Below are positions 972-26,874 of a DNA stretch of 32,000 bases, piece by piece. The notes beneath the pieces were generated by a model. That model searched no databases. It saw only the letters and a list, made by a program, of their open reading frames with translations, and was not told where the DNA came from. How positions within the stretch are numbered: the stretch's first letter is position 1; each line of letters begins with the position of its first letter. Origin of the DNA: Candidatus Harpocratesius repetitus (GTDB lineage: Archaea; Asgardarchaeota; Lokiarchaeia; Sigyniarchaeales; Promethearchaeaceae); assembly GCA_021498095.1 (NCBI GenBank), contig JAIZWK010000001.1, forward strand, positions 60,001 to 92,000, in the 5' to 3' direction. The translations under genes and the position numbers were made by a program.

Positions 972-1343
972 TTGTCAAGCCTTTTTATCGTGGGCAAATA
1001 TTCTTGGTGCTTTGTCGTTTTAACACTGATAATTCAAATAATTGTTGTGATTAGCAATTTTAAAGCAATGTATGATGCTAAAGTCACACTTGATTTACTT
1101 TCTCCAGATTATCTGTCTTATAATATATTTAAAACCAAATATAAGCGAGGAATTGCACTCGCAAGATTTGCGATTATTTGGGCCTTTGTTTCAGCTGTGG
1201 TTATGGCAGGACTTGATACCTCTCTCGAAAGAAATATCCATTTATTTTTTATCATTTTTTATAGTTATTTACGAGGATGTTTTATCTTTTTTAATTTAAA
1301 CGCTTTTTTGAATAACATTCATATATCTCCGACTTATATCTGA
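972..1343 (+). CDS. Hypothetical membrane protein whose 3' end is replaced by a MITE insertion
   Basis: Three hydrophobic segments. Codons from 1272 onward come from the MITE. Removing the element and one TA gives an in-frame ending ...FYSYLRNSEIL* (stop at 1605-1607). The TTG start is uncertain. Confidence 0.4.
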   Translation: MSSLFIVGKYSWCFVVLTLIIQIIVVISNFKAMYDAKVTLDLLSPDYLSYNIFKTKYKRGIALARFAIIWAFVSAVVMAGLDTSLERNIHLFFIIFYSYLRGCFIFFNLNAFLNNIHISPTYI

Positions 1344-1584
1344 AATATCGCAATCTTCTTTTGTCGAACTCGTTTTTTTCAAAGAATTTGTTAAAAATAT
1401 ACCGTCTTGTTTATAAATTCTTCAATCTGAAGTCGATTTTATTATAATTTTTGATTTACATATCTTGAATTTGGCACCTTGGTAAAATCGACAAAAAATA
1501 AAGAAGACTATTTTGGATTTGAGTCTGAAGAATTAAGATGATGAAATGAAAAACTTCGAATCTTTGAAATTTAAAATACCCTCA
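1272..1584. mobile_element. MITE-like non-autonomous element, copy 1 (313 bp)
   Basis: About 90% identical to 12063-12376 by manual alignment (~30 differences). Imperfect 13-bp terminal inverted repeats (CGAGGATGTTTTA ... TAAAATACCCTCA), TA on both flanks, no shared ORF. Confidence 0.75.
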
Positions 1585-1632
1585 TAAGAAATAGCGAAAT
1601 TTTGTAAAATCATAGTATTAAAGAATTGTCAC

Positions 1633-2391
1633 TTATATAATCGAATAGGGAGAATTAGGCAGCTTTTTCTTGAATTTCTGCAAAATATCTTGAATCAAAG
1701 GATCGCTGGAAGGTAAATTCTCCTGGAGAAGCGTCAAAATTGAAGGTGAAGCCAGCATCAGCAGTAGTTTCCGATGTCGAGCCGTAAATCCGTGAGGGAA
1801 TGAATAGGGATCCAGGGAGACCGCTTTTTTTGAGCTGTGGATTTTGATGTATACAAACGCCATATCGGGAATGGTGGGCGGATTGAACGGAATCTCGAGT
1901 TTAGGAAATTTGCCGACTATTTCGGAATAGGTATATGTTTTAATATCCTTATTTGGCATTTTAATATAACTTAAAATAAAATCTATTTTGCGTGATTGAG
2001 AATCAAAATCCACCTTTTAATAAAAAAGGTCAAGTATTGCCTTTCGCTCCTCTGGATGAGGATGATTTATTTCATAAAAACAATCTTCAAAAACAGGATA
2101 GCCGTTTTTATCATAAGCCGGAATCGTAAAATTGGGACGAACTTGCCGTACGAAATACCATGCCAACCAGAAATTTGACTTGGGTAAGCCGTCTCGGGCT
2201 CGGGGCACTATTTCGGAAGAAGGAAACGGCATGATATACCATTCAAAACTGTAATCGCACGGATACTGCCGTAGATCGACATCGCATAAAATATAAAAAT
2301 CCTGCTCAAAATCGAGCACTTTCTCATACTGCCATGAAAATACAGGTATTTTTATCTCTGTATTTGCAGATTCATGCAGCAGAAACAGCAT
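1633..2391 (-). pseudogene. Paralog of the 7533-8510 hypothetical gene, split by an in-frame TAA
   Basis: ORFs 2017-2391 and 1633-2013 share a frame. TAA at 2017-2019 aligns with AAA (Lys) in the intact copy (TTT TAT TAA AAG GTG vs TAC TAT AAA AAG GTG). High nucleotide similarity from LRQYPC to the stop codon. Confidence 0.75.
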
Positions 2392-2439
2392 AATCCGAAG
2401 GGGGTCGTTATTAAAATGATCGAAAATCCTTGGAAACTG

Positions 2440-3003
2440 CTACTCAATTGCAGCTCGAATTTCAGGAACATTTAAATAAACTATACCCAACAATAAATTT
2501 AAATAATCGTTCCGTTCAAGCAGCGGGGTATATTTACCAATGATTTCGGCATTTTCTTGATACCATTTTATATATTGTCGGTCGGCAGAATAAATAATAG
2601 GTAGGTGCAGTGTGTTTAGGATGAAATTTGCATGGTCATCTTTATTCTTTCCGTAAGGGATTTTAATTATAGTATCAGTTTTTTTATCTATATGAATTAT
2701 ATATTCACCTGCGTCTAATGTTTCGGTTACAAATGCAAAAAACTTATTTAATATGAATATCGTATCCGTATAGCCTGCGCTTTTATAATCCTTTTTACTC
2801 ATTATTCTTCTTATCTGAATAGGATCTTTAAGATATGTCAAAAAGGTTTCATATAGCGAAGGATCAACTTTTCCGTATATCCTTTCCAAAATTTTCATTT
2901 TCTCCAGTATAAAGATAATTTCGATTTCGGAGTCGGCTTGAAATCTAAAAATATATTTATTGTCAAGATTTTCTGCGGTAGGCCAATCAAATTCTATTTT
3001 CAT
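2440..3003 (-). CDS. Hypothetical protein (~187 aa)
   Basis: Long ORF. The ATG at 3003 (MKIEFDWPTAE) is preferred over the 3108 start, which would overlap the opposite-strand gene. No motif recognised. Confidence 0.6.
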   Translation of the reverse strand: MKIEFDWPTAENLDNKYIFRFQADSEIEIIFILEKMKILERIYGKVDPSLYETFLTYLKDPIQIRRIMSKKDYKSAGYTDTIFILNKFFAFVTETLDAGEYIIHIDKKTDTIIKIPYGKNKDDHANFILNTLHLPIIYSADRQYIKWYQENAEIIGKYTPLLERNDYLNLLLGIVYLNVPEIRAAIE

Positions 3004-3079
3004 AATGCCTTTCTTTAAAAAAACTAGAGTTAAACAATTTGCGCGAAATAAAGGAGATTCCAATTCACCATACTTATAC

Positions 3080-3559
3080 ATGCTTAACAATAAACCTGAA
3101 ATTGCCATATTCGTATTTTTGGCAGTTATAATGGTGTTTCTTGCCTTAACTATTGTTATTGTTGTTTTAGTTAACTATAAAAAGGGTAAATTAAAGGAAA
3201 CACCAAATCTCATGCAGTTTAGTGAACGAGATTATCGTCCGGGAGAAGGATTTATTGATCAACATCCATAGAAAATTGGAAAAACCCGCACTTTGAAGGG
3301 GTTTTATGCCAGCGGTCATATTTCTTGGGAAAACTTTTTTGCCCCTTCAGAAAAAACGCCTGAAATACAAAAAAAACGTAATATAGCCGCTTGGATCATT
3401 TTTGGTTCGTTAGTAACTATATTTTCCATGTTTTTGGTGTTTGCTATGCTTGATATGATCTGGGCAATGATGTTTATGCTGGTGCTGATGATCTATTTAA
3501 TTTCTCTGATCACTGTAAATTTTCTAAGGATCAAAGTTTTTCGCAGGAGAAGGGCATGA
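3080..3559 (+). pseudogene. Small membrane protein gene interrupted by an in-frame TAG (or two tiny membrane genes)
   Basis: ORF 3080-3271 (one TM) and ORF 3293-3559 (two TM) are in the same frame, separated only by TAG at 3269-3271 (QHP*KIGKTRTLKGFY). Confidence 0.5.
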
Positions 3560-3606
3560 AACTCGAAATTTGAGCATTTCTCCTCTTTTTTAATTGCTCT
3601 TTATGA

Positions 3607-3707
3607 TTATTTGAAAGTTTTAGAAAATGCCCATATTGGATCGGTCAAGGAATGAATATAATTGATTATTTTTCCCTTTTCCATTGAATTCATATCCTCA
3701 CTGGAAT
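3607..3707 (-). repeat. Displaced copy of the 3' end of the PUA gene (att-like direct repeat, copy A)
   Basis: 101 nt with 8 mismatches to 6881-6981. Encodes SSEDMNSMEKGKIINYIHSLTDPIWAFSKTFK* and ends exactly at the stop codon. Confidence 0.9.
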
Positions 3708-3737
3708 TTAAAAAAAGAGAATAAAGCCAGTTATCTA

Positions 3738-4400
3738 TTAGTTTGTTGTATGTTTTGTATTTTTTCCCAAGTCCTGCAGCTTTTCCTTAGCTTTTTTTAT
3801 CACTATTTTCTTTGCTTCTTCAATAGCGATGTCTTTTGCTTGGTTTAATACAATTTTTGTGACTTCATTTTCGGCAATTTCCTTAACTTTTTCTTTAGCT
3901 ATTTCAAGTTTAGGTTTTGATGCTTCAGCAGTTTCTTTTGCTTTCTCTCCCAGCTCACGGGCTTTTTTTTTCGTTACTTCCATTGTTTTTTCTCCTAATT
4001 CACGAGCTTTTTCTTTAGCTATTTCAAGTTTAGGTTTTGATGCTTCAGCAGTTTCTTTTGCTTTCTCTCCCAGCTCACGGGCTTTTTTTTTCGTTACTTC
4101 CATTGTTTTTTCTCCTAATTCACGAGCTTTTTCTTTAGCTATTTCAAGTTTAGGTTTTGATGCTTCAGCAGTTTCTTTTGCTTTCTCTCCCAGCTCACGG
4201 GCTTTTTTTTTGGTTACTTCCATTGTTTTTTCTCCTAATTCACGAGCTTTTTCTTTAGCTACTTCAAGATTAGGTTTTGACGCTTCAGCAGTTTCTTTTG
4301 CTTTCTCTCCCAGTTCATGGGCTTTTTTTTTGGTTACTTCCATTGTTTTTTCTCCTAATTCACGAGCTTTTTTTTTAGCTATTTCTAATTTATCAAACAT
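3738..4400 (-). CDS. Lys/Glu/Ala-rich amphipathic helical repeat protein (LEA/apolipoprotein-like composition)
   Basis: About 4 tandem 40-aa units (KLEIAKEKARELGEKTMEVTKKKARELGEKAKETAEASKP). GGAGG lies 8 nt upstream of ATG 4400; an alternative ATG is at 4415. Confidence 0.8.
   Translation of the reverse strand: MFDKLEIAKKKARELGEKTMEVTKKKAHELGEKAKETAEASKPNLEVAKEKARELGEKTMEVTKKKARELGEKAKETAEASKPKLEIAKEKARELGEKTMEVTKKKARELGEKAKETAEASKPKLEIAKEKARELGEKTMEVTKKKARELGEKAKETAEASKPKLEIAKEKVKEIAENEVTKIVLNQAKDIAIEEAKKIVIKKAKEKLQDLGKNTKHTTN
3887..4388. repeat. 120-bp coding tandem repeat, ~4.2 copies
   Basis: Successive 120-nt blocks starting at 3887, 4007, 4127 and 4247 are near identical; partial fifth unit. 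Confidence 0.95.
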
Positions 4401-4459
4401 TGAAATGTCCTCCATTTTCTTTTAGATTATAAAAAAAAATTCTCCTATTTTTAGTTTTT

Positions 4460-5872
4460 TTAGGATTCTTCAATCAATTCTTCTGTTCCATCCCAATTTT
4501 CGTCCCAAAATCGAGGTGGTTTTTTATTCACATGAACCGAGAGTTTATCCGATTCACGACGAATTTTTTCAGCTACCGGTGCCCAATCTTTTGAAATTTG
4601 TTGACATTTATCTGTTAGATCATCCACTGATTCTTTATCAAGCATTTGAGTGGATTTTGCATTTGATGTATGCACCATCTCTTTTAATTTGTCGGGGTTA
4701 TCAAGCAAGGGACATGGCCGCAGATAATTTTTATTAAATGGCTGATTTTGATTATATTGCTTAAATAGTGGAGATTTTAGAGATTCTAATAAACTTACAT
4801 CTTTGATGTTCACATTTGAATAATGGATAAAAGCACAAGGTTCCACATCTCCATGTGCATTTATATGTAGATAGCTTCTTCCTCCTGCAATACAACCTCT
4901 TGAATAATCTCCATCATTCCAAAAATCAATCATTAAAATTGGTTTAGTTTCTCGAAACTTCCGAACTTGATCAAACATAAATTTTCTTTGTTCTGGACTA
5001 CATAACAAATCCATCTCAGCATCTTTTCCTAATGGGATATAAGTAAATAGCCAAGCGTAACTTGCACCCATTTTAATCATATAATCAATATATTCCTCAG
5101 ATCCAATAACTTTTGTATTTTTACTATGGTAACATGAGGAAATACCAAACATCACTCCGTGTTTTTTAAGAAGTCTCATAGCATTCATTATTTTCTGATA
5201 GGTTCCCTTTCCTCGACGAAAATCTGTTTCTTCTTCAAAACCTTCTACACTAATAGCTAGAGTAAAATTTCCTACTTCAGCTAAAGCCTTAGCAAACTCG
5301 TCATCAACTAAAGTTGCATTTGTAAATGCCAAAAAGAAGCAATCTTGATGTTTCTTTGCTAATTTAAGTAAATCATTTCTTCTGATTGTTGGTTCTCCAC
5401 CGGAATACAAATACCAATAAATTCCTAAATCTTTTCCTTCTTTGATAATTCTGTCCATTAAATCAAAACTAAGATTATCTGTTTTCTTATATTCAGCAGC
5501 CCAACATCCTTTACACTTTAAATTACATGAAGATGTCGGATCCATAAGAACAGCAATTGGAATATTACAATGGTGCTTTCTCATTAATTTTTGACTCTTT
5601 TTTACACCAACCATTGCCGTATTTACGCCAAAATTCCTCACAAAACTTTTTACTGTTTTTGAATTTGTATTTTCCATTAAATTTACAAGAAATTGATACA
5701 TCGGATTTTTCTCATCATAAAATGCTTGTAAATATCCTTTTTGAATGGAATTCGAAGCAAATCTTTCAACTCCCTTAACTAGCTTAGGAAGTCTTTTCTT
5801 GGGATTTTTTAACACATAACTAGCTGCTAAATTTAATCCCAAACTATTAATAAAATACTTTGGATTTAACAT
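4460..5872 (-). CDS. Radical SAM protein with C-terminal SPASM/Twitch-type region
   Basis: CxxxCxxC (DPTSSCNLKCKGCWAAEY), GGEP motif, FTNAT. C-terminal GCIAGG...GDVEPC...RPCP cysteines. AGGTG RBS upstream. Confidence 0.92.
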   Translation of the reverse strand: MLNPKYFINSLGLNLAASYVLKNPKKRLPKLVKGVERFASNSIQKGYLQAFYDEKNPMYQFLVNLMENTNSKTVKSFVRNFGVNTAMVGVKKSQKLMRKHHCNIPIAVLMDPTSSCNLKCKGCWAAEYKKTDNLSFDLMDRIIKEGKDLGIYWYLYSGGEPTIRRNDLLKLAKKHQDCFFLAFTNATLVDDEFAKALAEVGNFTLAISVEGFEEETDFRRGKGTYQKIMNAMRLLKKHGVMFGISSCYHSKNTKVIGSEEYIDYMIKMGASYAWLFTYIPLGKDAEMDLLCSPEQRKFMFDQVRKFRETKPILMIDFWNDGDYSRGCIAGGRSYLHINAHGDVEPCAFIHYSNVNIKDVSLLESLKSPLFKQYNQNQPFNKNYLRPCPLLDNPDKLKEMVHTSNAKSTQMLDKESVDDLTDKCQQISKDWAPVAEKIRRESDKLSVHVNKKPPRFWDENWDGTEELIEES

Positions 5873-5906
5873 TTAATACACCTTTAGTATTATAAACAAT
5901 TAATTA

Positions 5907-5931
5907 AAACAATCATTTAAAACTATTGTTT
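5907..5931. promoter_or_regulatory. Candidate TetR operator (25-bp imperfect palindrome)
   Basis: AAACAATCATTTAAAACTATTGTTT lies between the divergent radical SAM and TetR genes, with perfect 7-bp outer arms. The operator role is inference. Confidence 0.45.
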
Positions 5932-6013
5932 GACTTTATTTAATAAGAAAAATCGTTTTTAAATAAATGCAAAAACAAATATTTATTATTAATATACTAG
6001 AGTTGATTAAGTA

Positions 6014-6592
6014 TTGAAGGAAAAACTTTCAAAGAAAGATAAAATTATAAACGCTGCCCTCAAAATCATAACTGAAAGAGGAAACATGAATTTTACTATA
6101 CGTGAAGTCGTATTGGATGCAGATGTTAATATTGCTTCTGTAAATTATTATTTTGGAACCAAAAGGAAATTAATTCAAGAAATTGAAAAAAAATTCATTC
6201 GAAGACTTTTAGATTTTCAGAGTATTTTGGCAAATCCTCAATCATCACCACAAGAACAGCTATTTGAATGGGCTTGTACATTAATTGAAGAATTAATAAA
6301 AAATCCAGGAATAGTTTTAATTTTAAGCAACAAATTAATTTTAACTGAACAATTTGATGAGGACATTGAATTATTTATTAAAGAGAATAATCAATATCTG
6401 AATTCAATTATTAAAAAAATTACAGGAATTGAAGATGATGAAATAATCCAATTAAAAACTACCCGAATTAATGCAGATCTATTTTTCCCTATGCTTTTTA
6501 TTAAAAATTCTGAAAAAATCTTCGGTTTTTCTATCCAAGATGCTGAAATCCGAAAAAAATATGTAAAATCAGTCATTGATTCAATTTTATAA
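6014..6592 (+). CDS. TetR/AcrR family transcriptional regulator
   Basis: N-terminal KDKIINAALKII...FTIREVVLDADVNIASVNYYFGTKRKL is the TetR HTH signature. Divergent from the radical SAM gene. Confidence 0.9.
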   Translation: MKEKLSKKDKIINAALKIITERGNMNFTIREVVLDADVNIASVNYYFGTKRKLIQEIEKKFIRRLLDFQSILANPQSSPQEQLFEWACTLIEELIKNPGIVLILSNKLILTEQFDEDIELFIKENNQYLNSIIKKITGIEDDEIIQLKTTRINADLFFPMLFIKNSEKIFGFSIQDAEIRKKYVKSVIDSIL

Positions 6593-6880
6593 ATCAAATA
6601 GGATATAGATTAGAAGAAAAAAGATGGAAACTGTAGTTGATTTGGGAGATTTTGTTGTAATTCAGCCTTAGTAAAATTATCGAATGAACACCAATTTTCC
6701 CAGTGCAAGGGAGAACCACAACTTTCGATTCATACCAAAATGATAACCCATATCGTTCTTCTAATGAAATTTTAGAATCTTTGAGGGATAGCGTTCTAAA
6801 TTCATTTTAATTTGATTGGTTATATGATAATTTTCAAGGCGATGAAAGAATTTTTACCCAATTGAGAAGCATTCTCACTA

Positions 6881-6981
6881 TTATTTGAAGGATTTTGAAA
6901 ACGCCCATATTGGATCGGTTAAGGAATGAATACATTTGATTATTTTTCCCTTTTCCATTGAATCCATATCCTCACTGGAAT
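6881..6981 (-). repeat. 3' end of the PUA gene (att-like direct repeat, copy B)
   Basis: 93/101 identical to 3607-3707. Confidence 0.9.
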
Positions 6982-7407
6982 ATAAAACTTCTCCCACGGA
7001 CAAAATGCGCCCGTGAGAAGGATCTTCAACCAATACTACATCTCCTGGTAATATTCCCTTATCAATCTCGGTGACCCCGGGTCTCATTACATCTGCTCCC
7101 TTAGACATAAACTTCACCGCCCCCAAATCGACTTTTACCCGAGGATAAGGCAACTTATGATTCATTAAATAACTTAGTAATGGGATAGATTTTCCCTCTT
7201 TAACCCAAAAAGTTAGGACTCCATTAATGGCGTAAATTTCTTGGTTTCCGTCCAATTTCATCCATTCCACCCAATCTTTGGTGGAAACAATTTGTTTAAG
7301 TTCTTCTTGGGAAAGACTCAATTGTTCTGCAAATTTTGCCCAAATTTTTTTATATCTTTAGATTTTAGCATATGACGTTGATGAATTTTTAAGGGTTCTG
7401 GTGCCAT
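6881..7407 (-). CDS. Archaeal PUA-domain RNA-binding protein (MCT-1/Tma20-like), apparent 1-nt frameshift near the 5' end
   Basis: VKVDLGAVKFMSKGADVMRPGV...GKIIKCIHSLTDPIW is a typical PUA C-terminus. ATG 7407 (MAPEPLKIHQRHMLKSKDIKK) joins the main ORF if the A7 run (T7 at 7345-7351) is A8. Confidence 0.85.
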
Positions 7408-7532: not shown

Positions 7533-8510
7533 TCATATAATCGAATAGGGAGAATTGGGCAGCTTTTTCTTGAATTTCTGCAAAATATCTTGAATCAAAG
7601 GATCGCTGGAAGGCAGATTTTCCTGTAGAAGCGCAAGAATTGAAGGTGTAGCCAACATCAGCAGAAGTTTCCGATGTCGAGCCGTAAATCCATGAGGGAA
7701 GGAATTAGGATCGAGAGAAACACTTTTTTTTGAGCCGTTGATTTTGATGTATGCAAATGCCATATCAGGAATGGTGGGCGGATTGAACGGAATCTCGAGC
7801 TTGGGAAATTTACCGACTATTTCAGAATAGGTATACGTTTTAATATCCATATCTGAGTATCTAATATAATTTAAAATAAAATTTATTTTGCTAGATTGTG
7901 ATTTAAAATCCACCTTTTTATAGTAAAAGTCAAGTATTGCCCTTCGCTCCTCTGGATAAGGATGATTTATTTCATAAAAACAATCTTCAAAAACCGGATA
8001 GCCGTTTTTATCATAAGCCGGAATCGGAAAATTGGGACGAACTTGCCGTACGAAATACCATGCCAACCAGAAATTTGATTCGGGTAAGCCATCTCGGGCT
8101 CGCGGCACGATTTCGGAAGAAGGAAACGGCATGACAAACTTACTAAAACTGTAATTGCACGGATACTGCCGTAGATTGACTCCCATCACCCAGAAATAGT
8201 GCATGACCTTAAAATGATATTTAGTTTCGTAAGGAATAGGTTCGGGAAATGGAAAATAGATCCTTGAAGGAATAAAGCAGGGAGAAAGCGATTTCGGGTC
8301 GAGTAGGCACTCATAGTGGTAAAAACGCCAATACGGATGAAGGGAAACGCCGAAGTCATCAGTTGGAATATTAATCGGAAGTGGAAGCCCGTATTGAAAC
8401 CCGAAAGGATATTCATCCTCCGGAGCGAGTGGAAACCGCTCGAAATCATCGTCATCATATTCATTTGTATAATTATCATCATTATAGATATTGTTAAAAT
8501 ATTTTATCAT
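7533..8510 (-). CDS. Hypothetical Pro/aromatic-rich protein with acidic N-terminus (intact paralog)
   Basis: 325-aa ORF, visibly more GC-rich than its flanks. Many differences from the 1633-2391 copy are at third codon positions, supporting coding status. No family recognised. Confidence 0.8.
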   Translation of the reverse strand: MIKYFNNIYNDDNYTNEYDDDDFERFPLAPEDEYPFGFQYGLPLPINIPTDDFGVSLHPYWRFYHYECLLDPKSLSPCFIPSRIYFPFPEPIPYETKYHFKVMHYFWVMGVNLRQYPCNYSFSKFVMPFPSSEIVPRARDGLPESNFWLAWYFVRQVRPNFPIPAYDKNGYPVFEDCFYEINHPYPEERRAILDFYYKKVDFKSQSSKINFILNYIRYSDMDIKTYTYSEIVGKFPKLEIPFNPPTIPDMAFAYIKINGSKKSVSLDPNSFPHGFTARHRKLLLMLATPSILALLQENLPSSDPLIQDILQKFKKKLPNSPYSII

Positions 8511-11971: not shown

Positions 11972-12062
11972 ATTATTATAATGGCCGTTCCCCTAATAAA
12001 TTTATTCGACTTTGTCTTTGAATTCTGAGCAAAATAATTACCAAAAAACAAAATGAAAAAAT

Positions 12063-12376
12063 TGAGGATCTTTTATCTATTCTAATTTAAACGCTTTTTT
12101 GAATATCATTTATATATATCCGACTTAAATCTGAAATATCGCAATTCTTTTTTTGTCGAACTCGATTTTTTCAAAGAATTTGTTAAAAATTTACCATCCT
12201 GCTTATAAATTCTTCAATCTGAAGTCGATTTTATTATAATTCTTGATTTACCTATCTTGAATTTGGCCCCTTGGTTAAATCGACAAAAAATATGGAGGGA
12301 TATTTTGGATTTGAGTCGGAAGAATCAAGTTGAAGGAATGAAAAACTTCGAATCTTTGAAATTTAAAATACCCTCA
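12063..12376. mobile_element. MITE-like non-autonomous element, copy 2 (314 bp)
   Basis: About 90% identical to 1272-1584. Ends TGAGGATCTTTTA ... TAAAATACCCTCA (11/13 inverted match), AT on both flanks. Confidence 0.75.
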
Positions 12377-12631
12377 ATAAAAAAAAATATAAACCCCTTT
12401 CATGATTATATAATTTGCTCTGAAGAAATTGGATTAATATCATGCCATATCATAACATACCGTGAAGATACGATTCAAATTGTTAAAAGAAGTTTTTTTT
12501 GATAATACAAAATAGTTATTCGTAATCATTTTATTCTTTCAATCTTCAGCGGGAATAAATTTATAAAAAACACAAATAAGAACTGAAAAAAATTGCCTTA
12601 GATTCTAAATTTCACAAAGGAGTAATTTTGA

Positions 12632-15102: not shown

Positions 15103-18100
15103 TTAAGTTATATAATTAAGGAGTATTTTTTGTATCTCAATTTGATTGTAATTATTAGAATGATAAAGACTTTCAATTTCTTCAATATCTTTCATTCTAT
15201 TTGAAACATTTAAGACTTTAACAGAATTCTGAAAATTCTTAATATTATCCCCAATAATATTCATATTTTTTTCAATAAGACCAATAATCGCTCTTAATTC
15301 TGACACTTTTAACTCCAAAATAGGATAATTAACCTTCTTTATTAGTTGCAAGGCTTTTGTTATTAAAGAATCTGATTCTGAAAATTGTTTTAATAACGCA
15401 AAAAGCTTTGCTTTAAGTAAAAGTGGTCGAATAAAATAACGGGTCTCCTTAATTGTGGGATTAACTTTTTCTACTTGCTCTAGTTTTTCAATATTTTTTA
15501 AAATGAGATTTGTAAAATCTTTGGTTTCAGAAGAATTAATCTTCACTGATTCAATTAAGGCTTCATCAAACAATATCCAAGAAATCTTCTGAGGATCTTT
15601 AAGTTTATCAGCAATTATTTTTGCTTTTTCAAGGAATATCTTTGCATTATCATAATCACGAAGGAAAATATAAGTTTCACCAATATTGTAATTCATAACC
15701 ATATTCCAATAGACATTACCAATTTTTTCTGAAATATCTAAAGCAGATAGAAAATGTTTTAATCCACTAACATAGTCTCCTCTATGAAAATCAATCCATC
15801 CATAACTATTCTCAATATATGAATGGATGTTATTTATTTCACTAATTTCTTGAGCGAGTTCATTAGTTCTTTTTAATATTTCTTCTGCTTTTTTAAATTT
15901 ACATTGTAAAATAAACGTCATGACATAATTGATATGCAATTCAATAAGTAACGGTTTATGTTTAGAAAGATCTACAGGACTATCTGTTCCTTTTGATTTT
16001 TCTTCCAAAATTTCTATTCCCTTAAGATATTCCTCTCCAGCACCTTCAAGATCATCTTGTGATTTCTTTAAAATTCCATATTTCAAGTAAGTTTTAGCTA
16101 ATCTATATCTATTTTTTGTTGTTTTGAAAATTGTTAATGCAGGATTAAAGAATTTCGCAGATAATTCAGGCATATTTCTTACTTTAAAAAAATGTATTAG
16201 TTCAATAAACAATATTCCGATATAATTTGGATGAATTAGCAATTTTGAATCTGAATCTGAATTTTGAAGCCGTTGAGGAATACTTAAAAGATAGTTCTCT
16301 AAACTAGATTGAATTCGCATAGGAATATTTGATTCAACAGCAAAAATCTGTTCAAAATCATCGACAACATTATAAATATACCCTCTCTTATATTTTTCTG
16401 CTAAAAATTTTTCATTTTTTAGTAGTTTTAGCAATTTACTAAAAGACTCTAATTCACCTGAATTGATAAGATGTTGAGGCAAGTACAATATCAGATAATC
16501 AGATAATCCTTCATATTCATCTGAGGGTGTTTGAATAAAAATATTCCATAAATAATTTGCAAATACTTTATGACCATGGTTTGTATCAATATAATATTCT
16601 AATGCAATTTCTGAATCTGTTAGAAATTCTCCAAGAGTACTGTGAAAGGGAAAAAAATACCCATTTCTTTCTTTAATAAAAGAGTTTAAAGAGATTATTG
16701 TATCCATTTTTTCTTTTGTTTTCCATTTCAAGATTTTGTCAATTAGATAAGAAGAGATCGTTGATTTTGCAGCATAAATTAATTCTAGAAAAGGACGCTG
16801 CAATTTATCGTAGATCATTAAATCTGGAAATCGTTCCTCGAAATATTTATAATATATTGTATCCAAACCAAAGGGAACAGATTCTAATTGTTGAATATCA
16901 AATCCTTCTTTTTGAAGATTATCCATTAAAATTTTTATATATAAAAACATACCTTCACTTTTTGAAATTACTTCTTTTATTACATTTTCATTTGGTTTAA
17001 TTCCTTGTTCAGCCATGTTTTCTATTATATACTGCTCTAAATCGTTAATATTATGAAGAGTATTTTTATAATCATTTAAATCAATAATCTGAGGTTTGAT
17101 TTTTTTCAATTTTAAGATTAAATCCTTCTCAGGACGGCTTGTAACCATAAGTTTTATCCATTTTGGCAGTTTTTTCCATTCAAATGCAATTATATCTGCA
17201 ATTTCATTCTTATTCCCTTTTTTTGCCTCATCTAAACCATCAATTATAACAATTTTAGGCTCATCTGGAATAGGAGTAGTTATAATATTAAGTGGACGAA
17301 TTAAGATGTTATCAAATAACGTTTTTGGATTACTTAAACAGGATTCTTCTAAGTTGATTTCTTGTAAAGCTTCATAATAAGTAGGAATATGTTGAGATAA
17401 TTGATAAGCTATTGATAGAATTGCACGCCGTGCATCACTCTTGTCCTCATGATTTCTTATACAAATGTGGTATGCATATATATTTGGATTGTAATGACAT
17501 AGATAAGAAGAGAATGCAGATTTTCCTAAGCCGGGCCCTCCTTTTATCCATAATATTTGAGAAGTATTAACATTTTTTTGCCATTTTTCGAAAATTTCCA
17601 ATAACCATTTTCTTCCTGTGAATTTAGAAATATGTTGAGAAATTTCAGATTCAAATGCTAATGGTTTAAGTAATTTTTTTAATCGCATTTGACCTCCTTC
17701 AAAATCTAATTTATCTTCTTCTATTGCTTGAATTAATCTTTTAAATCTTTCCTTATACTTGTATTTAAATTCAGCAATAGGTACACTATCTCGTAAATCT
17801 AAATATTGAATACGACAAATAGATGTTGGAGGTCCATCAACAAGGGTTACTAGTAAAATAGGAATGATTATTTTATTTTTTTCTAAAGCTTTTGCAATTT
17901 CATTTAAGCAATATCCATAAGTTGAATTTGGGTTTTCAATTGAAGGTCGACGCATTGAATGTGGCGTCATTAATAAAACAACTTTATCGCATTCTTTCAA
18001 ACCATTTTCAATATATATCTCCCAATCTTTTCCAATCCGTAATTGTTCATCATCAAACCATACTTTGTGACCTCTTCGTTCTAGATCTTCTTTAATTATT

Positions 18101-18303
18101 CTTGCATCATCACTATATTCATCTCGACCATAACTAAGAAAGATTTTAAAGATAGGATGCTCCTTTTCTTTATTAAGGCTCATTTCTGGTTGAGATTGCC
18201 ATTCATTTTCACAATCCAAGCAAATATAAGTGGATTTTCTTTTAAAAAAATGAATGTTTACAGAATGACATTGCGGACATTGAATAGAATTATTTTTTTT
18301 CAT
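15103..18303 (-). CDS. NLR-like STAND protein: Zn-ribbon + TIR + NACHT-like NTPase + TPR repeats
   Basis: CPQC..CLDC ribbon. TIR motifs IFLSYGR, VWFDD, YCLNE, IIPILL. Walker A GGPGLGKS, Walker B IVIIDGLDE, MVTSRP. C-terminal TPR-like helices (GLKHFLSALDISEKIGN...NIGETY...AKIFLEKAKII). Confidence 0.9.
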   Translation of the reverse strand: MKKNNSIQCPQCHSVNIHFFKRKSTYICLDCENEWQSQPEMSLNKEKEHPIFKIFLSYGRDEYSDDARIIKEDLERRGHKVWFDDEQLRIGKDWEIYIENGLKECDKVVLLMTPHSMRRPSIENPNSTYGYCLNEIAKALEKNKIIIPILLVTLVDGPPTSICRIQYLDLRDSVPIAEFKYKYKERFKRLIQAIEEDKLDFEGGQMRLKKLLKPLAFESEISQHISKFTGRKWLLEIFEKWQKNVNTSQILWIKGGPGLGKSAFSSYLCHYNPNIYAYHICIRNHEDKSDARRAILSIAYQLSQHIPTYYEALQEINLEESCLSNPKTLFDNILIRPLNIITTPIPDEPKIVIIDGLDEAKKGNKNEIADIIAFEWKKLPKWIKLMVTSRPEKDLILKLKKIKPQIIDLNDYKNTLHNINDLEQYIIENMAEQGIKPNENVIKEVISKSEGMFLYIKILMDNLQKEGFDIQQLESVPFGLDTIYYKYFEERFPDLMIYDKLQRPFLELIYAAKSTISSYLIDKILKWKTKEKMDTIISLNSFIKERNGYFFPFHSTLGEFLTDSEIALEYYIDTNHGHKVFANYLWNIFIQTPSDEYEGLSDYLILYLPQHLINSGELESFSKLLKLLKNEKFLAEKYKRGYIYNVVDDFEQIFAVESNIPMRIQSSLENYLLSIPQRLQNSDSDSKLLIHPNYIGILFIELIHFFKVRNMPELSAKFFNPALTIFKTTKNRYRLAKTYLKYGILKKSQDDLEGAGEEYLKGIEILEEKSKGTDSPVDLSKHKPLLIELHINYVMTFILQCKFKKAEEILKRTNELAQEISEINNIHSYIENSYGWIDFHRGDYVSGLKHFLSALDISEKIGNVYWNMVMNYNIGETYIFLRDYDNAKIFLEKAKIIADKLKDPQKISWILFDEALIESVKINSSETKDFTNLILKNIEKLEQVEKVNPTIKETRYFIRPLLLKAKLFALLKQFSESDSLITKALQLIKKVNYPILELKVSELRAIIGLIEKNMNIIGDNIKNFQNSVKVLNVSNRMKDIEEIESLYHSNNYNQIEIQKILLNYIT

Positions 18304-20458: not shown

Positions 20459-20586
20459 AATTTTCGCTCTCTTTTTTATTTCCTTTTTAAAATTCATTGT
20501 AGAAATTGAAAATTTCAGAAATAAATATAATATCTACGATTATTTCATTTTTTCTTAAAAAAAGAGATATTTTTATTAACGAAAGA

Positions 20587-21444
20587 TCAATTCACTGACA
20601 CCTTGGTTTGAATCTTTTTCCCAAAATTTTCGTTTAATTGAAATAATTTTTTAATTCTTGAATTATTCCATTCACTAAAGAGAATTTTTGGACTAAATTT
20701 ATACGAAACAAATGTAATTTCTAAGATTTCTGGGTTATTTTTGGTAATAATAAATTCCCGAAGTCGCTGTTCTAAACCCTCAAGTGTTTCAGTGCCCGTC
20801 AATTGTACGCGAGTTTCAATCACACTATTTATATTCTCCGCGAGATTATCCAATTGAGACTTTTTCCAAAATAAGTCTTGTGTTTCCCTAATAGCAGCTG
20901 CAACTGCAGGAAGCACACCTTTCGCCAATCTTAGAATTTTACGAGAAGGACCAATTTTCGCATATCCCCGTTTTCATCTGTCAAAAACTGTAAAGAGTCC
21001 TTTCCCTCCCCGCATTATTTTTGCTTTCTGGTTTTTTCTTTGTTTTCCTCGCCCGTTCTTCACACCTTTTGGTCTGTCCCACCTTTTTGGTATTGGCAAA
21101 CTCAAATCATCTTCATTCACTAAGTAAAAGTATTCTTTTATCATCTCGCCTAGCATGCTGTCAAGCACTTCTCTGACACCTCCAGATGTAGTCAAGGCAA
21201 ATTGTCGGGCAGTATTGTGCGTTTTATTGAATAAGCATGCAGGTTTTTTACACTGATAATATTGAACCCTCCTCCCTTTCCGTTTATGAGTGCCATATAC
21301 TCAGACGACAGCAGAGCGGCATTCTGGGCACAAAACAGGTATTATTTATAGAATTTCTTCCCTTCCATCTTCAAAATTAATGTATAATGGCTCGAATAAT
21401 GGAGAGTATTCCTTTTTAGGGTGTCCTATCATAGGATAACACAT
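20587..21444 (-). pseudogene. Decayed transposase-like gene with N-terminal zinc ribbon
   Basis: One frame from ATG 21444 reads ...LCPECRSAVV*VYGTHKRKGRRVQYYQCKKPAC..., an IS-type Zn ribbon. In-frame stops at 21346, 21301 and 20974 link the two listed ORFs. Family not assigned; the downstream frame is uncertain. Confidence 0.55.
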
Positions 21445-21753: not shown

Positions 21754-24700
21754 ATGACAAAATCAAAGAGAATCTCTTATTTTGGATTATTATGCATAGT
21801 TGGGCTATTTTTAACACTACCAATTATCATCCAATCTAACAGCACTCAAGAAAGATTAGAAACCTTTATTGATAATGGATTAAAAAAAGATAGTCAAATT
21901 TTTAGCATTAAAGATCAAGATACTGGAGAAAATTTATTCATCCAGAATGATGAAATCGTGGATATAACAGACCAAACCTATATGAATATTTACATTTTTG
22001 ATTCTGCTCAGGTCACTCTTACGAATGTCATTGTGACAGGCGATATTGAAGTATCAGGGAATGCGACCCTGCTCATGCATGATGGAGGAAGCGCCAATCG
22101 GCTAATACTTTCCAACAATGCGACTGCAACCCTCGATAACATCACGTGTATCTATGAAAAAATTATTGGAAGCGAAAATAGTACTCTCATCTACACAAAC
22201 ACAAAGAATTCTGAATATTTTGAAGCAGCTTTTAACGATTTTGCTCGCATACAAATATCCAATGCAATTTGGAATGCATATACCAACTTTTATGATTATA
22301 GTTGGTTAACCGCGGCTAATACAGAACTTAGTGATAATCTGTATTTTTATGAACAATCTACGGGTAATTTTGTCAATTCGGAGATTTCAAGTTATGTGGT
22401 AAGAGGATACAGTGCTTCAACATTCAATTTCTGGAACACATCAGTTCAACGCCTTGAACTGGAAGGAAACCGCTACGAATATGAAGAAGGTTGGCTTTCA
22501 CTCAATGCGAACAATTTATCAGTAATCAATGAATTTCGAGTGAGAAACAATGTAGTTTTAAATGTATCGGATTCTAATATTGAAGCGGGAATTCAATGTT
22601 TTAGGGATTCTTACTCTGTTTTTAGCCCTAATGTTTCATTATCCAACATAAATGCCACCTTAACAAAAGATTCAATGGGATCTTCGGATACTTTCAATGA
22701 AATTGAAACACTATATGTCAGTAATTCCACAATTATTGTGATGTTTTTGGATGTATCTAAATTATATGGTACCGATCACTCTCAGATCTCCTATCTAATG
22801 TCTTCTTTTGGAACATATTATGATCTCGATGGAACGAATACTTTCGAACAAGGCGTGACGGGAATTTATAATGGAAATTATTTCATTCTGGAAGAAGAAT
22901 TACTTACACTCTCTGAAGAAGCATATAATAATATATATTTATGCGATAATGTGAATGTTACCCTGCACAACGTAATTGTTTCTGGTGATATCGAAGTATC
23001 AGGGAATGCGACCCTGCTCATGCATGATGGAGGAAGCGCCAATCGGCTAATACTTTCCAACAATGCGACTGCAACCCTCGATAACATCACGTGTATCTAT
23101 GAAAAAATTATTGGAAGCGAAAATAGTACTCTCATCTACACAAACACAAAGAATTCTGAATATTTTAAAGCGACTTTTAACGATTTTGCTCGCTTACAAA
23201 TATCTAATGCAATTTGGAATGCATATACCAACTTTTATGATTATAGTTGGTTAACCGCGGCTAATACAGAACTTAGTGATATTCTGTATTTTTATGAACA
23301 ATCTACGGGTAATTTTGTCAATTCGAAGATTTCAGGTTATCAGGTATGCGTATACAGAGCTGCAACATTAAATTTCTGGAACACATCAGTTCAACGCCTT
23401 GAACTGGAAGGAAACCGCTACGAATATGAAGAAGGTTGGCTTTCACTCAATGCCAACAATTTATCAGTAATCAATGAATTTCGAGTGAAAAACAATGTGG
23501 TTTTAAATGTATCAGATTCCAATATTGAAGCGGGAATTCAATGTTTTAGGGATTCTTACTCTGTTTTTAGCCCTAATATTTCATTAACCAACATAAATGC
23601 CACCTTAACAAAAGATTCAACGGAATCTTCGGATACAATCAATGAAATTGAAACACTACATGTCAGTAATTCCACAATTATTGTGATGTTTTTGGATGTA
23701 TCTAAATTATATGGTACCGATCACTCTCAGATCTCCTATCTAATGTCTTCTTTTGGAACATATTATGATCTCGATGGAACGAATACTTTCGAACAAGGCG
23801 TGACGGGGGTTTATAATGGAAATTATTTCATTCTGGAAGAAAAATTACTTACACTCTCTGAAGAAACATATAATAATATATATTTATGCGATAATGTGAA
23901 TGTTACCCTACACAACGTAATTGTTTCTGGCGATATCGAAGTATCAGGGAATGCGACCCTGCTCATGCATGATGGAGGAAGCGCCAATCGGCTAATACTT
24001 TCCAACAATGCGACTGCAACCCTCGATAACATCACGTGTATCTATGAAAAAATTATTGGAAGCGAAAATAGTACTCTCATCTACACAAACACAAAGAATT
24101 CTGAATATTTTAAAGCGACTTTTAACGATTTTGCTCGCTTACAAATATCTAATGCAATTTGGAATGCATATACCAACTTTTATGATTATAGTTGGTTAAC
24201 CGCGGCTAATACAGAACTTAGTGATATTCTGTATTTTTATGAACAATCTACGGGTAATTTTGTCAATTCGGAGATTTCAAGTTATGTGGTAAGAGGATAC
24301 AGTGCTTCAACATTCAATTTCTGGAACACATCAGTTCAACGCCTTGAACTGGAAGGAAACCGCTACGAATATGAAGAAGGTTGGCTTTCACTCAATGCGA
24401 ACAATTTATCAGTAATCAATGAATTTCGAGTGAAAAACAATGTGGTTTTAAATGTATCAGATTCCAATATTGAAGCGGGAATTCAATGTTTTAGGGATTC
24501 TTACTCTGTTTTTAGCCCTAATATTTCATTAACCAACATAAATGCCACCTTAACAAAAGATTCAACGGGATCTTCGGATACAATCAATGAAATTGAAACA
24601 CTACGTGTCAGTAATTCCATAATTTCTGTAATGTTTTTAGAGATCCATATCCTTAACGCCACAAACAATTCTCGTATCTGTGATCAAAACGTCATTTTTG

Positions 24701-26874
24701 GACAGATCTTTTTGGATAAAACGTCGATGATTGTTGGAGATGATTTAGATCAAGATGGTTTGAGTGATTCAACCGAAACACAAGTGTATCTCACCGATCC
24801 CAATAACCCCGATTCCGATGGCGATGGTTACGGTGATGGTGAAGAAATCCATTTTGGATCTGATCCGCTTAATGCCATGGATATCCCCGAAGACAACGAA
24901 TACGCTACAATTATTTCGACTGGAGTGCAAGAAGGCAACACTTATCATCATGATGTACTTATTCATGTTTCCACTTGGGATAATCGGGGAATAAAAAATG
25001 TACGTCTCTATCTAAATAGCACACTCCTTTATGAAGAAAATATCTCTGCACAATACTATTGGCTCAACGGAACCATTGAATTTGATTATACTTTGCACAC
25101 ATATGATTTTGCTGATGGTGAATACTTATTAGCAGTACAGGTAATCGATATTCACGATAATCCCAATGAAAATTTATATTTCATTTCATTCGATAACACT
25201 CCGATTTCAATTACCCTAACTGGAGAAAACATTCTTCATAATAATTCAAGAACGGCGAGTGGGATTATCCCATCGATAAAATTTTCTGAACCACCCCAAA
25301 TTGTTTTCTATTCATGGGACGGGGCACCAAATACGACAATCTTGCAAGCGATCCCTGTTGGAGATGGATGGCACTTTTTACGGGTTAATGTATGGGATGC
25401 TGTCGGGAATCACAATGCCACTACATTTGCCTTTGAAGTCGATGATAGTGTTATTTATGCCTATTTAGGAGGCGGGCTTGAAAATAACGATTTCATCACA
25501 AGTGATACGCTGATTGAAGTGACTTTTAGCAAACCACCAAAGGAAGTATATTATGCTTGGGATGGAGGTCCAGAAAATATTACTTTACCACCCATACCTG
25601 CAACGCAAGGAATACATGAATTGACAATCCGTACAATTTCTGATACAAACATTGAACATGTTACGACCTATACATTTACGGTGGATGATTTTCCCCCGGT
25701 TATAGAATTATTGACCCTCGTGGAAAATGAAAGTTATCTCAGTGGAACCGTCGTGGAATTCAATATTTCAGAACCTCTTTCCATATTAGAATTTGCATGG
25801 GATAACGGCGCAAATTTCACCACGACTCCCATGATCCCAGTTGGAGATGGTAATCATACGCTTACAGTTTGGGCGGCCGATTTTGTTCCCCATTGGACTA
25901 TTCGTGAATTTACCTTTGTCACCGATGATCCTCTCACTTTGATCTTTTTAGATGTAAGTAATGGAAGTATTTTGGAAAGTGGAGTTCCCATCATTATGGA
26001 CATTCGGGGACATACGGGAGATTACCTGTATTGGTGGGATAATAATTCGGCAGAACTTTCCAATACCTTCGAACCGAATCAATGGCCGATCACCCCACTC
26101 TTGGATGGAGAACATACTCTTTCAGTGTTAATTAGTGATAATTTTGGTAATTCCCTTCTTGGCACCTTAAATGTGATAGTAGCCAATCCGCTGATCAGCA
26201 TTATAGTCGATTACCCAATGAATAATACAATCATTTCGGAGACTCAAGAAATTCATGTTTCTTTTTCCGAACCTCCGCAAGCCACTCATTATTGCTGGGA
26301 TTTCGGCAACATCACAACGGAATTACAACCGATTCCATTGATTGAAGGTCCGCATGTGTTAGAAATTTGGGCATTAAATGAACACAATAGCTGGAGCTAC
26401 GCCCGATACGAGTGGAATTTAAACATTAATGATGCCCCAACTCTTGAATTAATCTATCCTACAGGAGGCGAAATACTACAAGGAGTGATTACTATTTCTT
26501 GGGATGGAAATGATGCTGACAATGATCCGTTAATTTATTCTATCTATCTCAGTCTAAATAATCAGGATTGGATTTTGGTAGTCTCTGGGCTCAATCGGGA
26601 AGTCTATGAAATTAACACCAATGATTATGAAGAAGGTGTATATTATTTGAAAATTGTCGCATCAGATGGGATATTAGAAACAGAAGCCTATTTAGATGGA
26701 AAGATAACGCTGAAACACACTTCCGATAATGAACCTGCCGATACTGAGCAGCCCCTTGATGAAAACCCATTTGACGATTGGGAAAGTATCCCAGGATATT
26801 CGATGACAATATTAACGGGACTACTCGCAGTTTCGATAATGACGCTCACATTCGCCCACAAAAAGCGAAGATGA
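21754..26874 (+). CDS. Large cell-surface protein: N-terminal signal/TM, beta-helix-like 315-aa repeats, TSP3-like Asp repeats, Ig-like repeats, Loki-CTERM-type sorting signal
   Basis: Hydrophobic N-terminus; three Asn/Ser/Thr-rich repeats; DLDQDGLSDSTE...DPNNPDSDGDGYGDGEE; repeated WDG..IP.GDG.H.L modules; C-terminal SIPGY + TM + KKRR. Confidence 0.9.
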   Translation: MTKSKRISYFGLLCIVGLFLTLPIIIQSNSTQERLETFIDNGLKKDSQIFSIKDQDTGENLFIQNDEIVDITDQTYMNIYIFDSAQVTLTNVIVTGDIEVSGNATLLMHDGGSANRLILSNNATATLDNITCIYEKIIGSENSTLIYTNTKNSEYFEAAFNDFARIQISNAIWNAYTNFYDYSWLTAANTELSDNLYFYEQSTGNFVNSEISSYVVRGYSASTFNFWNTSVQRLELEGNRYEYEEGWLSLNANNLSVINEFRVRNNVVLNVSDSNIEAGIQCFRDSYSVFSPNVSLSNINATLTKDSMGSSDTFNEIETLYVSNSTIIVMFLDVSKLYGTDHSQISYLMSSFGTYYDLDGTNTFEQGVTGIYNGNYFILEEELLTLSEEAYNNIYLCDNVNVTLHNVIVSGDIEVSGNATLLMHDGGSANRLILSNNATATLDNITCIYEKIIGSENSTLIYTNTKNSEYFKATFNDFARLQISNAIWNAYTNFYDYSWLTAANTELSDILYFYEQSTGNFVNSKISGYQVCVYRAATLNFWNTSVQRLELEGNRYEYEEGWLSLNANNLSVINEFRVKNNVVLNVSDSNIEAGIQCFRDSYSVFSPNISLTNINATLTKDSTESSDTINEIETLHVSNSTIIVMFLDVSKLYGTDHSQISYLMSSFGTYYDLDGTNTFEQGVTGVYNGNYFILEEKLLTLSEETYNNIYLCDNVNVTLHNVIVSGDIEVSGNATLLMHDGGSANRLILSNNATATLDNITCIYEKIIGSENSTLIYTNTKNSEYFKATFNDFARLQISNAIWNAYTNFYDYSWLTAANTELSDILYFYEQSTGNFVNSEISSYVVRGYSASTFNFWNTSVQRLELEGNRYEYEEGWLSLNANNLSVINEFRVKNNVVLNVSDSNIEAGIQCFRDSYSVFSPNISLTNINATLTKDSTGSSDTINEIETLRVSNSIISVMFLEIHILNATNNSRICDQNVIFGQIFLDKTSMIVGDDLDQDGLSDSTETQVYLTDPNNPDSDGDGYGDGEEIHFGSDPLNAMDIPEDNEYATIISTGVQEGNTYHHDVLIHVSTWDNRGIKNVRLYLNSTLLYEENISAQYYWLNGTIEFDYTLHTYDFADGEYLLAVQVIDIHDNPNENLYFISFDNTPISITLTGENILHNNSRTASGIIPSIKFSEPPQIVFYSWDGAPNTTILQAIPVGDGWHFLRVNVWDAVGNHNATTFAFEVDDSVIYAYLGGGLENNDFITSDTLIEVTFSKPPKEVYYAWDGGPENITLPPIPATQGIHELTIRTISDTNIEHVTTYTFTVDDFPPVIELLTLVENESYLSGTVVEFNISEPLSILEFAWDNGANFTTTPMIPVGDGNHTLTVWAADFVPHWTIREFTFVTDDPLTLIFLDVSNGSILESGVPIIMDIRGHTGDYLYWWDNNSAELSNTFEPNQWPITPLLDGEHTLSVLISDNFGNSLLGTLNVIVANPLISIIVDYPMNNTIISETQEIHVSFSEPPQATHYCWDFGNITTELQPIPLIEGPHVLEIWALNEHNSWSYARYEWNLNINDAPTLELIYPTGGEILQGVITISWDGNDADNDPLIYSIYLSLNNQDWILVVSGLNREVYEINTNDYEEGVYYLKIVASDGILETEAYLDGKITLKHTSDNEPADTEQPLDENPFDDWESIPGYSMTILTGLLAVSIMTLTFAHKKRR
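22039..24620 (+). repeat. 945-bp (315-aa) intragenic tandem repeat, ~2.7 copies
   Basis: GG(C/T)GATAT(T/C)GAAGTATCAGGG starts at 22039, 22984 and 23929. Near-identical shadow ORFs at 22118, 23063 and 24008 confirm the 945-nt period. Confidence 0.95.

Follow-up and report, generated by a model that had tools for sequence, protein, structure and literature searches.

A 3.2-kb integrase-free module bracketed by two copies of a PUA gene tail in the Asgard archaeon Candidatus Harpocratesius repetitus

How does a block of accessory genes without an integrase come to lie between two copies of the 3' end of one and the same gene? This question is raised by a 32,000-nt stretch of DNA (the window; G000:C1:60001-92000) from the 4.36-Mb single-contig genome of Candidatus Harpocratesius repetitus, an Asgard archaeon (G000), in which a PUA/MCT-1-like gene, here called PUA', is separated from an orphan copy of its own tail by a module encoding a TetR-family regulator, a radical SAM enzyme and a repeat protein. 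Positions given below refer to the window unless they are marked as genome positions. With a probability of roughly 0.55, we favour an insertion with long target duplication at the PUA' locus. According to this scenario, 3166 nt (3714-6879) would have been inserted at the 3' end of a spare PUA/MCT-1-like copy, and the event would have duplicated about 108 nt of the target, made up of the final 101 nt together with the stop codon and a few bases. The gene-side copy would have kept the reading frame complete, and the copy joined to the old downstream flank would have become an orphan that is now decaying. The molecular step can be guessed at; host functions may have brought about the insertion through homology (Campbell-like) or through break repair, with no dedicated integrase.

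The direct repeat and its junctions

Repeat searches and pairwise alignment revealed a direct repeat at 3606-3713 and 6880-6987, in which 99 of 108 positions are identical (9 mismatches); the copies start 3274 nt apart and share at most 28 nt without a mismatch. The gene-attached copy (6880-6987, minus strand) consists of the last 101 nt of PUA', its TAA stop (6883-6881) and a few flanking bases. The orphan (3606-3713, minus strand) comprises 34 codons, closes with an identical TAA at 3609-3607 and is joined to the downstream flank. The original prediction, made from the letters of the sequence, had reported that the last 101 nt recur at a spacing of 3274 nt with 8 mismatches within the 101 nt, and alignment confirmed this. 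Its proposed geometry of an insertion at the 3' end of a gene, with one tail retained by the gene and an orphaned second tail on the downstream flank, is the one that we find. When blastn was run across the whole genome, the two copies matched each other with an E-value of 9e-36 and the sequence was not multi-copy, as the only further match was the native paralog at 3.768 Mb (77% identity).

The genome was derived from an enrichment or metagenome sample, and the 92% identity of the repeat copies lies within the range of strain divergence, as would be expected if an assembly had joined two strain haplotypes and an uncollapsed overlap now appeared as a direct repeat. However, Logan contigs that were assembled independently from the source sample cover 2959-3916 (flank, orphan and cargo) and 4343-7357 (cargo, tail and gene body) with zero differences and with equal depth of about 24-26x at both junctions. 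As both junctions are bridged by these contigs, the structure is not an assembly artefact, and the probability that we leave to such an origin is practically negligible. An excision joint between the two repeats was not found among the source-sample contigs, from which, being assembled, rare forms are dropped.

The same geometry at other genes of the genome

A self-comparison of the whole genome by blastn was filtered for low-copy, local and direct repeats of 45-600 nt, which left 35 pairs. In 10 pairs, a copy that includes a gene's stop codon is accompanied by an intergenic orphan located downstream with respect to transcription, and in 1 pair the orphan tail lies upstream. Orphan gene heads were found upstream in four cases and downstream in one. 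Such an asymmetry of tails and heads is the expectation for insertion with target duplication and not for a symmetric decay of duplicated genes. Besides PUA', tail orphans occur at nine further loci (genome 342390/344019, 378603/381272, 510694/513331, 2054696/2061695, 2260749/2265222, 2460829/2467437, 3491644/3499666, 115816/138738 and 785266/795486), with 1.6-23 kb of inserted DNA between gene tail and orphan and with repeat identities that range across the events from 99.6% to 76%. Targets include a ferredoxin-domain gene, a beta-galactosidase gene, a SNF2 helicase gene, an actin gene, an ABC transporter gene and others.

For two of these loci, empty sites are available in relatives. At the SNF2 helicase gene, where a 118-nt repeat (98% identity) brackets 2.6 kb of inserted DNA, the gene adjoins its downstream neighbour in the genomes G001, G002, G010 and G011 with gaps of about 20-75 nt. 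At the actin gene, where a 249-nt repeat (99.6% identity) brackets 4.2 kb, the gene adjoins its downstream neighbour in G001, G002 and G011 with gaps of about 460-710 nt; in G010 the sole match to this neighbour is weak and located elsewhere. At both loci, insertion is proven. The stop now used by the SNF2 gene lies 10 nt beyond the end of the repeat, and the original last codons follow the orphan, which indicates that the insert supplies a new stop codon.

No common motif was found at the repeat edges across the nine loci, and no gene is common to the cargos, aside from pieces of miniature inverted-repeat transposable elements (MITEs) or insertion sequences (IS). The original prediction had tied the process to the PUA gene, and this part cannot be upheld in view of the same geometry at ten or more unrelated genes without a shared edge motif or a shared cargo gene. 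Most likely, the PUA' locus is one more case of a general, recombinase-free mode of insertion in this genome. As no empty PUA' site is available, we infer the insertion at PUA' from the same mode at the other loci and have not seen it directly.

At the ABC transporter locus, a gene's tail is duplicated, and so is the head of the gene that follows. An element of about 4 kb at genome 2260991-2265221 is present at 13 other places (for example 2913524-2917512 and 4144890-4148775) and encodes proteins of 951 aa and 337 aa that match no known family; one end is common to all copies, the other is truncated to various extents, and direct repeats flank only 2-3 of the 14 copies. We considered this element, which lies at the actin locus, as LINE-like (long interspersed nuclear element) and rejected the assignment given the scarcity of flanking repeats and given that no reverse transcriptase or other domain was detectable.

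The exchanged module and its redundant target

The inserted DNA (3714-6879; 3166 nt) is present in a single copy in the genome, and its GC content does not stand out. It contains a gene for a charged, helical protein of 225 aa built of 40-aa (120-nt) tandem repeats (3738-4415, minus strand), a gene for a radical SAM/SPASM enzyme of 470 aa (4460-5872, minus strand) and, divergent from the latter, a gene for a TetR-family regulator of 192 aa (6014-6592, plus strand). Analysis of the three open reading frames (ORFs) with Pfam and NCBIfam gave TetR_N, Radical_SAM/SPASM and, for the repeat protein, only a weak phasin-like match; no integrase or transposase and no tRNA gene were found in the insert. 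Profile scans thus bear out the earlier description of the cargo as TetR, radical SAM and helical repeats lacking an integrase. Between the module and the PUA' stop lie 240 nt (6640-6879), where we looked for a relic of a third tail and obtained scores that equal those of shuffled sequences.

The family of the radical SAM enzyme is very large (7946 matches at E<=1e-60), with about 58-60% identity to clostridial proteins, and the solved structures closest to it are SPASM enzymes of the SkfB, PqqE and CteB type. The enzyme was not found in the same-genus genomes G001 and G002. Its closest homolog in the genomes of relatives (G009, 55% identity) lies among housekeeping genes without TetR or repeat protein, and a homolog search with the 225-aa repeat protein returned nothing. 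An ENA contig (L265) contains the genes for TetR and the radical SAM enzyme, as well as the beginning of that for the repeat protein, with 90.4% nucleotide identity to window 6639-4323; the 240 nt next to the PUA' stop are not shared. On its other side, 9.2 kb of L265 are collinear with genome 1.0688-1.0783 Mb of G000 at only 66-78% (about 72%) nucleotide identity, and the module begins there 5 nt past the stop of a gene for a 359-aa radical SAM protein, with no PUA sequence at that junction. A module that is 90.4% identical within a backbone of 66-78%, and at a different position, must have been relocated or exchanged with respect to the backbone. Contigs of three further metagenomes from two studies (runs X3-X5) match the window from 3705 to about 6572, with about 90-96% identity in the listed pieces. 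All three cease to match at exactly 3705, yet continue for 29-70 nt. Position 3705 lies 8 nt inside the 5' edge of the orphan, and this shared stop indicates that the orphan is not part of the module and that the module end coincides with the repeat edge. Two further contigs (L266 and L267; 87%) have only the radical SAM gene in common with the insert. In another (L277; 78% at the amino acid level) the pairing of TetR and radical SAM genes is kept, as it is in L265, and the neighbours are genes of lipid metabolism (patatin, GDPD and PAP2). The cargo is a horizontally exchanged accessory module, foreign and mobile, and its proposed nature as an exchangeable module without an integrase is substantiated by L265, which carries it in another context, and by the metagenome contigs, which diverge at its edge. 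As a guess, it may provide a TetR-controlled modification by the radical SAM enzyme that is possibly related to lipids or to the envelope.

The target PUA' (6881-7407, minus strand; ATG at 7407) is a second, xenologous Pre-PUA/DUF1947/PUA gene. Each of the 40 relatives searched (40/40) has one ortholog, and G000 has two copies. The native copy is intact (174 aa; genome 3767839-3768363, 3.77 Mb) and lies behind a UDP-glucose dehydrogenase gene within 10 kb that are collinear in the same-genus genomes G001 and G002 as well as in the contigs L064, L065 and L067. PUA' does not share this context and sits behind an unrelated, genus-specific, multi-copy gene X. At the protein level, PUA' is 70% identical to the native copy, 78% to the ortholog of G002 and 84% to P0005 (175 aa), the protein of contig L064 (Logan ERR15087787), and these identities mark PUA' as a xenolog or at least as an extra copy of foreign type. 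The PUA and Pre-PUA domains of PUA' score above the Pfam thresholds (PF01472 at 5e-19). The ORF of PUA' from a TTG at 7321 (6881-7321) encodes 146 aa, against a full length of about 174 aa for such a protein. A 1-nt deletion near 7328, where L064 and a separate PUA' head fragment (fragment A) read CAAGAACAA versus CAGAACAA in PUA', disrupts the frame at about codon 28, and the deletion reads the same in the source-sample contigs. A slippage of -1 at the A7 run (7345-7351) was considered as the cause of the frame break and rejected, because alignment with fragment A, L064 and G002 puts the deletion near 7328. The ratio of nonsynonymous to synonymous substitution rates (dN/dS) between PUA' and its L064 homolog is 0.09, which indicates that PUA' was under selection for most of its history. 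The original prediction had seen here a translation-related target gene that offered a dedicated attachment site. Its assignment as PUA/MCT-1-like stands; the gene is not the native copy, though, and a redundant, frameshifted xenolog in a mosaic of segmental repeats does not suit a dedicated site in a translation gene.

The two tails in the window are each other's closest relatives (91.4% identity versus 86.7% and 81.9% to L064). When their 9 differences were polarised with L064 and G002, the orphan held the derived state at 6-7 and the gene copy at 1, a distribution that fits one sequence duplicated with subsequent decay of the orphan and gives no sign that the tail of the gene came from an element. 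The earlier view that an element had supplied a replacement tail is not supported by this. Contig L064 has the closest relative of the gene (84% at the amino acid level) in the native context at 2885-3412, followed by a 158-aa ORF of no known family and by an orphan tail at about 4459-4565. This orphan is 76-80% identical to the tail of its own gene, has a 1-nt indel and lies behind a different cargo of 1.06 kb, which is flanked by a 17-nt exact (38-nt imperfect) direct repeat (3440-3477 and 4437-4474); the right copy of the latter abuts the orphan and forms its 5' junction. Different cargo behind the same repeat, which the prediction had suggested looking for, is thus present in L064, where the orphan tail at this junction accompanies cargo unrelated to that of G000. 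The orphans of L064 and G000 may reflect either an inherited structure with cargo turnover and with conversion in G000, or a hot spot. Among about 110 PUA loci, which included those of 29 relatives and 80 from metagenomes, no further orphan tails were found. One weak candidate (L188) was discarded, as it did not score above shuffled controls, and an exact-pattern scan of genome contigs with a 17-nt core of the tail gave nearly exclusively chance matches in bacteria. The native PUA loci in G000, L065 and L067, which are paralogous or orthologous loci in another context than PUA', have a single tail.

The DNA directly downstream of the native PUA gene varies within the genus among G001, G002, L064 and G000/L065/L067. 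In G002 (L041 10568-12409) it contains a 613-aa gene whose product is 97.8% identical to that of G000 3715882-3717666, a counterpart located 50 kb from the PUA gene of G000 itself; G001 has a different 404-aa ORF at this place. Orthologs of G002 and G000 are typically 70-80% identical, so that 97.8% suggests a recent exchange. Several genomes of a different Lokiarchaeial family (f3; for example G024:C9, G040:C41, G027:C51, G034:C61 and G031:C84) have, about 2 kb from PUA, a radical SAM gene whose product shares 28-31% identity with the cargo enzyme; this gene is probably an unrelated, conserved neighbour.

Around the locus, the chromosome is a mosaic. Gene X (7533-8510, minus strand; 325 aa) recurs together with the first ~30 codons of PUA' at genome 47928-49235 (92% identity in the self-comparison), and a decayed Y-X copy (1631-3021, minus strand; X fragment 1631-2279, Y fragment 2283-3021) is about 90-92% identical to genome 48171-50327. 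The flank that bears the orphan encodes two small membrane-type ORFs (3006-3271 and 3293-3559, both plus strand) that are convergent with the orphan tail, and MITEs of about 320 nt as well as fragments of IS240-, ISL3- and IS66-like transposases are found near the locus. The genus-specific, expanded gene X family, which matches no known family, encodes aromatic- and proline-rich proteins of 325-332 aa; besides the window copy, there are copies at genome 48176-49150, 2448325-2449293 (the additional copy at 2.449 Mb) and 61636-62325, and diverged ones at 906589, 784477, 1347230 and 1330513. Three gene X copies are about 88% identical, with a dN/dS of 0.54 between two of them. In region A, gene X follows a 631-aa gene Y that likewise belongs to no family. 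The head fragment of PUA' at genome 47964-48063, 19 kb from PUA' (window 7270-7407, minus strand), has an intact frame; its PUA homology stops at the deletion point of PUA', where a low-copy repeat begins that is also present at 512832, 1590142 and 2996313. One MITE-like repeat of about 320 nt (window 1272-1584 and 12060-12378) has more than 60 genome copies that are 88-100% identical, and more than 30 copies belong to a second such family of about 550 nt (for example within the SNF2 and ABC inserts and at window 20552-20994). Farther away, the window encodes a defence-like TIR-NACHT/STAND-TPR protein of 1066 aa (15103-18303, minus strand) and a 1706-aa ORF (21754-26874) with 945-nt tandem repeats that are 96% identical (genome 82024-84641).

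Competing explanations and known systems

Several observations weigh against an insertion with long target duplication. An empty PUA' site was absent from every genome and contig searched. The 240 nt beside the gene-side repeat fall outside the module as it is present in L265. Segmental repeats of similar divergence (90-92%) surround the locus, and the orphan could be a leftover of a lost second PUA' copy. The orphan of L064 starts within about 10 nt of the start of the G000 orphan, and this shared start fits a site-specific or an inherited structure better than random insertion. Moreover, 'long target duplication' names an outcome and does not explain it.

The mosaic surroundings are the main reason why a relic of segmental duplication is still to be considered. 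In that case, the orphan would be the remnant of a second PUA' that lost its 5' part by deletion or overwriting, the arrival of the module would be a separate event and the bracketing geometry would be coincidental. Three partial Y-X(-PUA') copies in direct orientation within 20 kb, with identities of 90-92% that resemble the 91.7% of the tail repeat, are what such a history would leave behind, as are the PUA' head fragment with codons 1 to about 30 at genome 47964-48063 and the IS fragments and MITEs around the locus. Yet the edge of the module (3705) and the 5' edge of the orphan (3713) coincide within 8 nt, and symmetric decay of duplicates does not predict that orphan tails lie downstream in the ratio of 10 to 1. 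Also, the orphan is located upstream of the Y fragment, which would require an extra tandem unit of which nothing else remains, and validated insertions of the same geometry are present in the very same genome. We therefore consider a mere relic unlikely. If the tail of PUA were instead a dedicated attachment (att) site or landing pad that a trans-acting recombinase uses repeatedly, attL and attR would enclose the 3.2-kb module as a non-autonomous integrative cassette. The L064 orphan within about 10 nt of the same codon, with other cargo and with a 17/38-nt repeat abutting it, is consistent with this idea, as is the different DNA downstream of native PUA in G001, G002, L064 and G000/L065/L067. 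A recombinase acting in trans might even be encoded in G000, since the proposed search for one yielded a single tyrosine recombinase (one PF00589 match at 2.287 Mb, of Xer-like size) and a dozen ORFs with a serine-recombinase domain (PF00239), all of them distant from the locus. However, profile scans detected no tyrosine or serine recombinase within 3714-6879 or in its neighbours, there is none in or near the cargo of L064, and the first defining feature of an integrase-type integrative element, a recombinase in or beside the element, is thus lacking. In L265 the module follows a different gene without PUA sequence at the junction, the sequence of the three metagenome contigs beyond 3705 is not an orphan tail at >=85% identity, and the nine other loci have unrelated targets and no common edge motif. 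Nor do the two tails show any sign of separate origins, and orphans were encountered at only two PUA loci with none more in about 110 scanned. A dedicated attachment site is thus distinctly unlikely; of the att-like integrative island originally proposed, the geometry of insertion at a gene 3' end and the mobile, integrase-free cargo survive; the dedicated site is not supported, nor is a tie of the module to PUA, as L265 carries it elsewhere.

A variant of this idea, which we regard as highly doubtful, would treat the PUA tail repeat as a landing pad that is recombinase-independent or served in trans and within which cassettes are exchanged between gene tail and orphan, and would assign the events in G000 to one undescribed archaeal mechanism. 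It would explain why unrelated cargo is accompanied by an orphan at one and the same junction in two lineages, why the nested 17/38-nt repeat of L064 lies exactly at the junction, and why strains resemble each other far more in the TetR/radical SAM module than in their chromosomes.

The preferred reading, insertion with long target duplication, has a bacterial precedent. Such insertion was reportedly treated by Nobusato et al. in 2000 (Gene 259:99). For bacterial restriction-modification (RM) genes, inserts without mobility genes have been described that are bracketed by direct repeats of 46-423 bp which occur nowhere else in the genome and often extend over the 3' end of a gene; empty sites were available for the published cases, and no archaeal case passed the screen (Furuta, Abe & Kobayashi, 2010; PMC2853133). 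The PUA' locus resembles them in that a few kb without mobility genes lie between unique direct repeats far longer than the target duplications of transposons, in that the repeat of 108 bp falls within the range of 46-423 bp and in that the repeats overlap the 3' end of a neighbouring gene, as they often do there. Three of the four defining features are found at PUA', namely repeats longer than 30 bp, no mobility gene and a repeat that is not multi-copy. In contrast to the bacterial cases, the PUA' repeats are 8% diverged and no empty site is available, the host is an Asgard archaeon, and the cargo consists of TetR, radical SAM and repeat-protein genes instead of RM genes.

Integrase-mediated islands and integrative elements target the 3' ends of tRNA genes or of protein genes, as exemplified by archaeal elements of the SSV and pNOB8 types and by family-1 casposons at aEF-2. 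Like PUA', they leave a direct repeat of the 3' end of the target that brackets the insert, with a complete gene and an orphan downstream. In contrast to them, the PUA' insert has neither integrase nor Cas1, there is no conserved core common to the other insertions in G000, the PUA' tail shows no sign of an origin from an element, and in the relative L265 the module occupies a site other than PUA. Campbell-type integration of a target-bearing circle by a single crossover would yield the same product, with a fragment duplicated on both sides, and host recombination would suffice for it. It is, however, a laboratory-style reaction; natural circles with a 108-nt PUA tail are hypothetical, and no circle junction was seen in the contigs.

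For the annotation of Candidatus Harpocratesius repetitus, it follows that the PUA gene of the window is a broken extra copy and not the translation factor of the organism. Insertion with long target duplication means gene gain without a mobility enzyme, and with ten or more of these events, the closed genome of this Asgard archaeon provides a compact data set for studying the mechanism; if the landing-pad view were true, these insertions, that at the actin gene included, would represent a single undescribed archaeal mechanism. Within this data set, the PUA' locus contributes a regulator-plus-enzyme module that has demonstrably been exchanged between strains, and it bears on how accessory, bacterial-looking genes enter the chromosomes of Asgard archaea.

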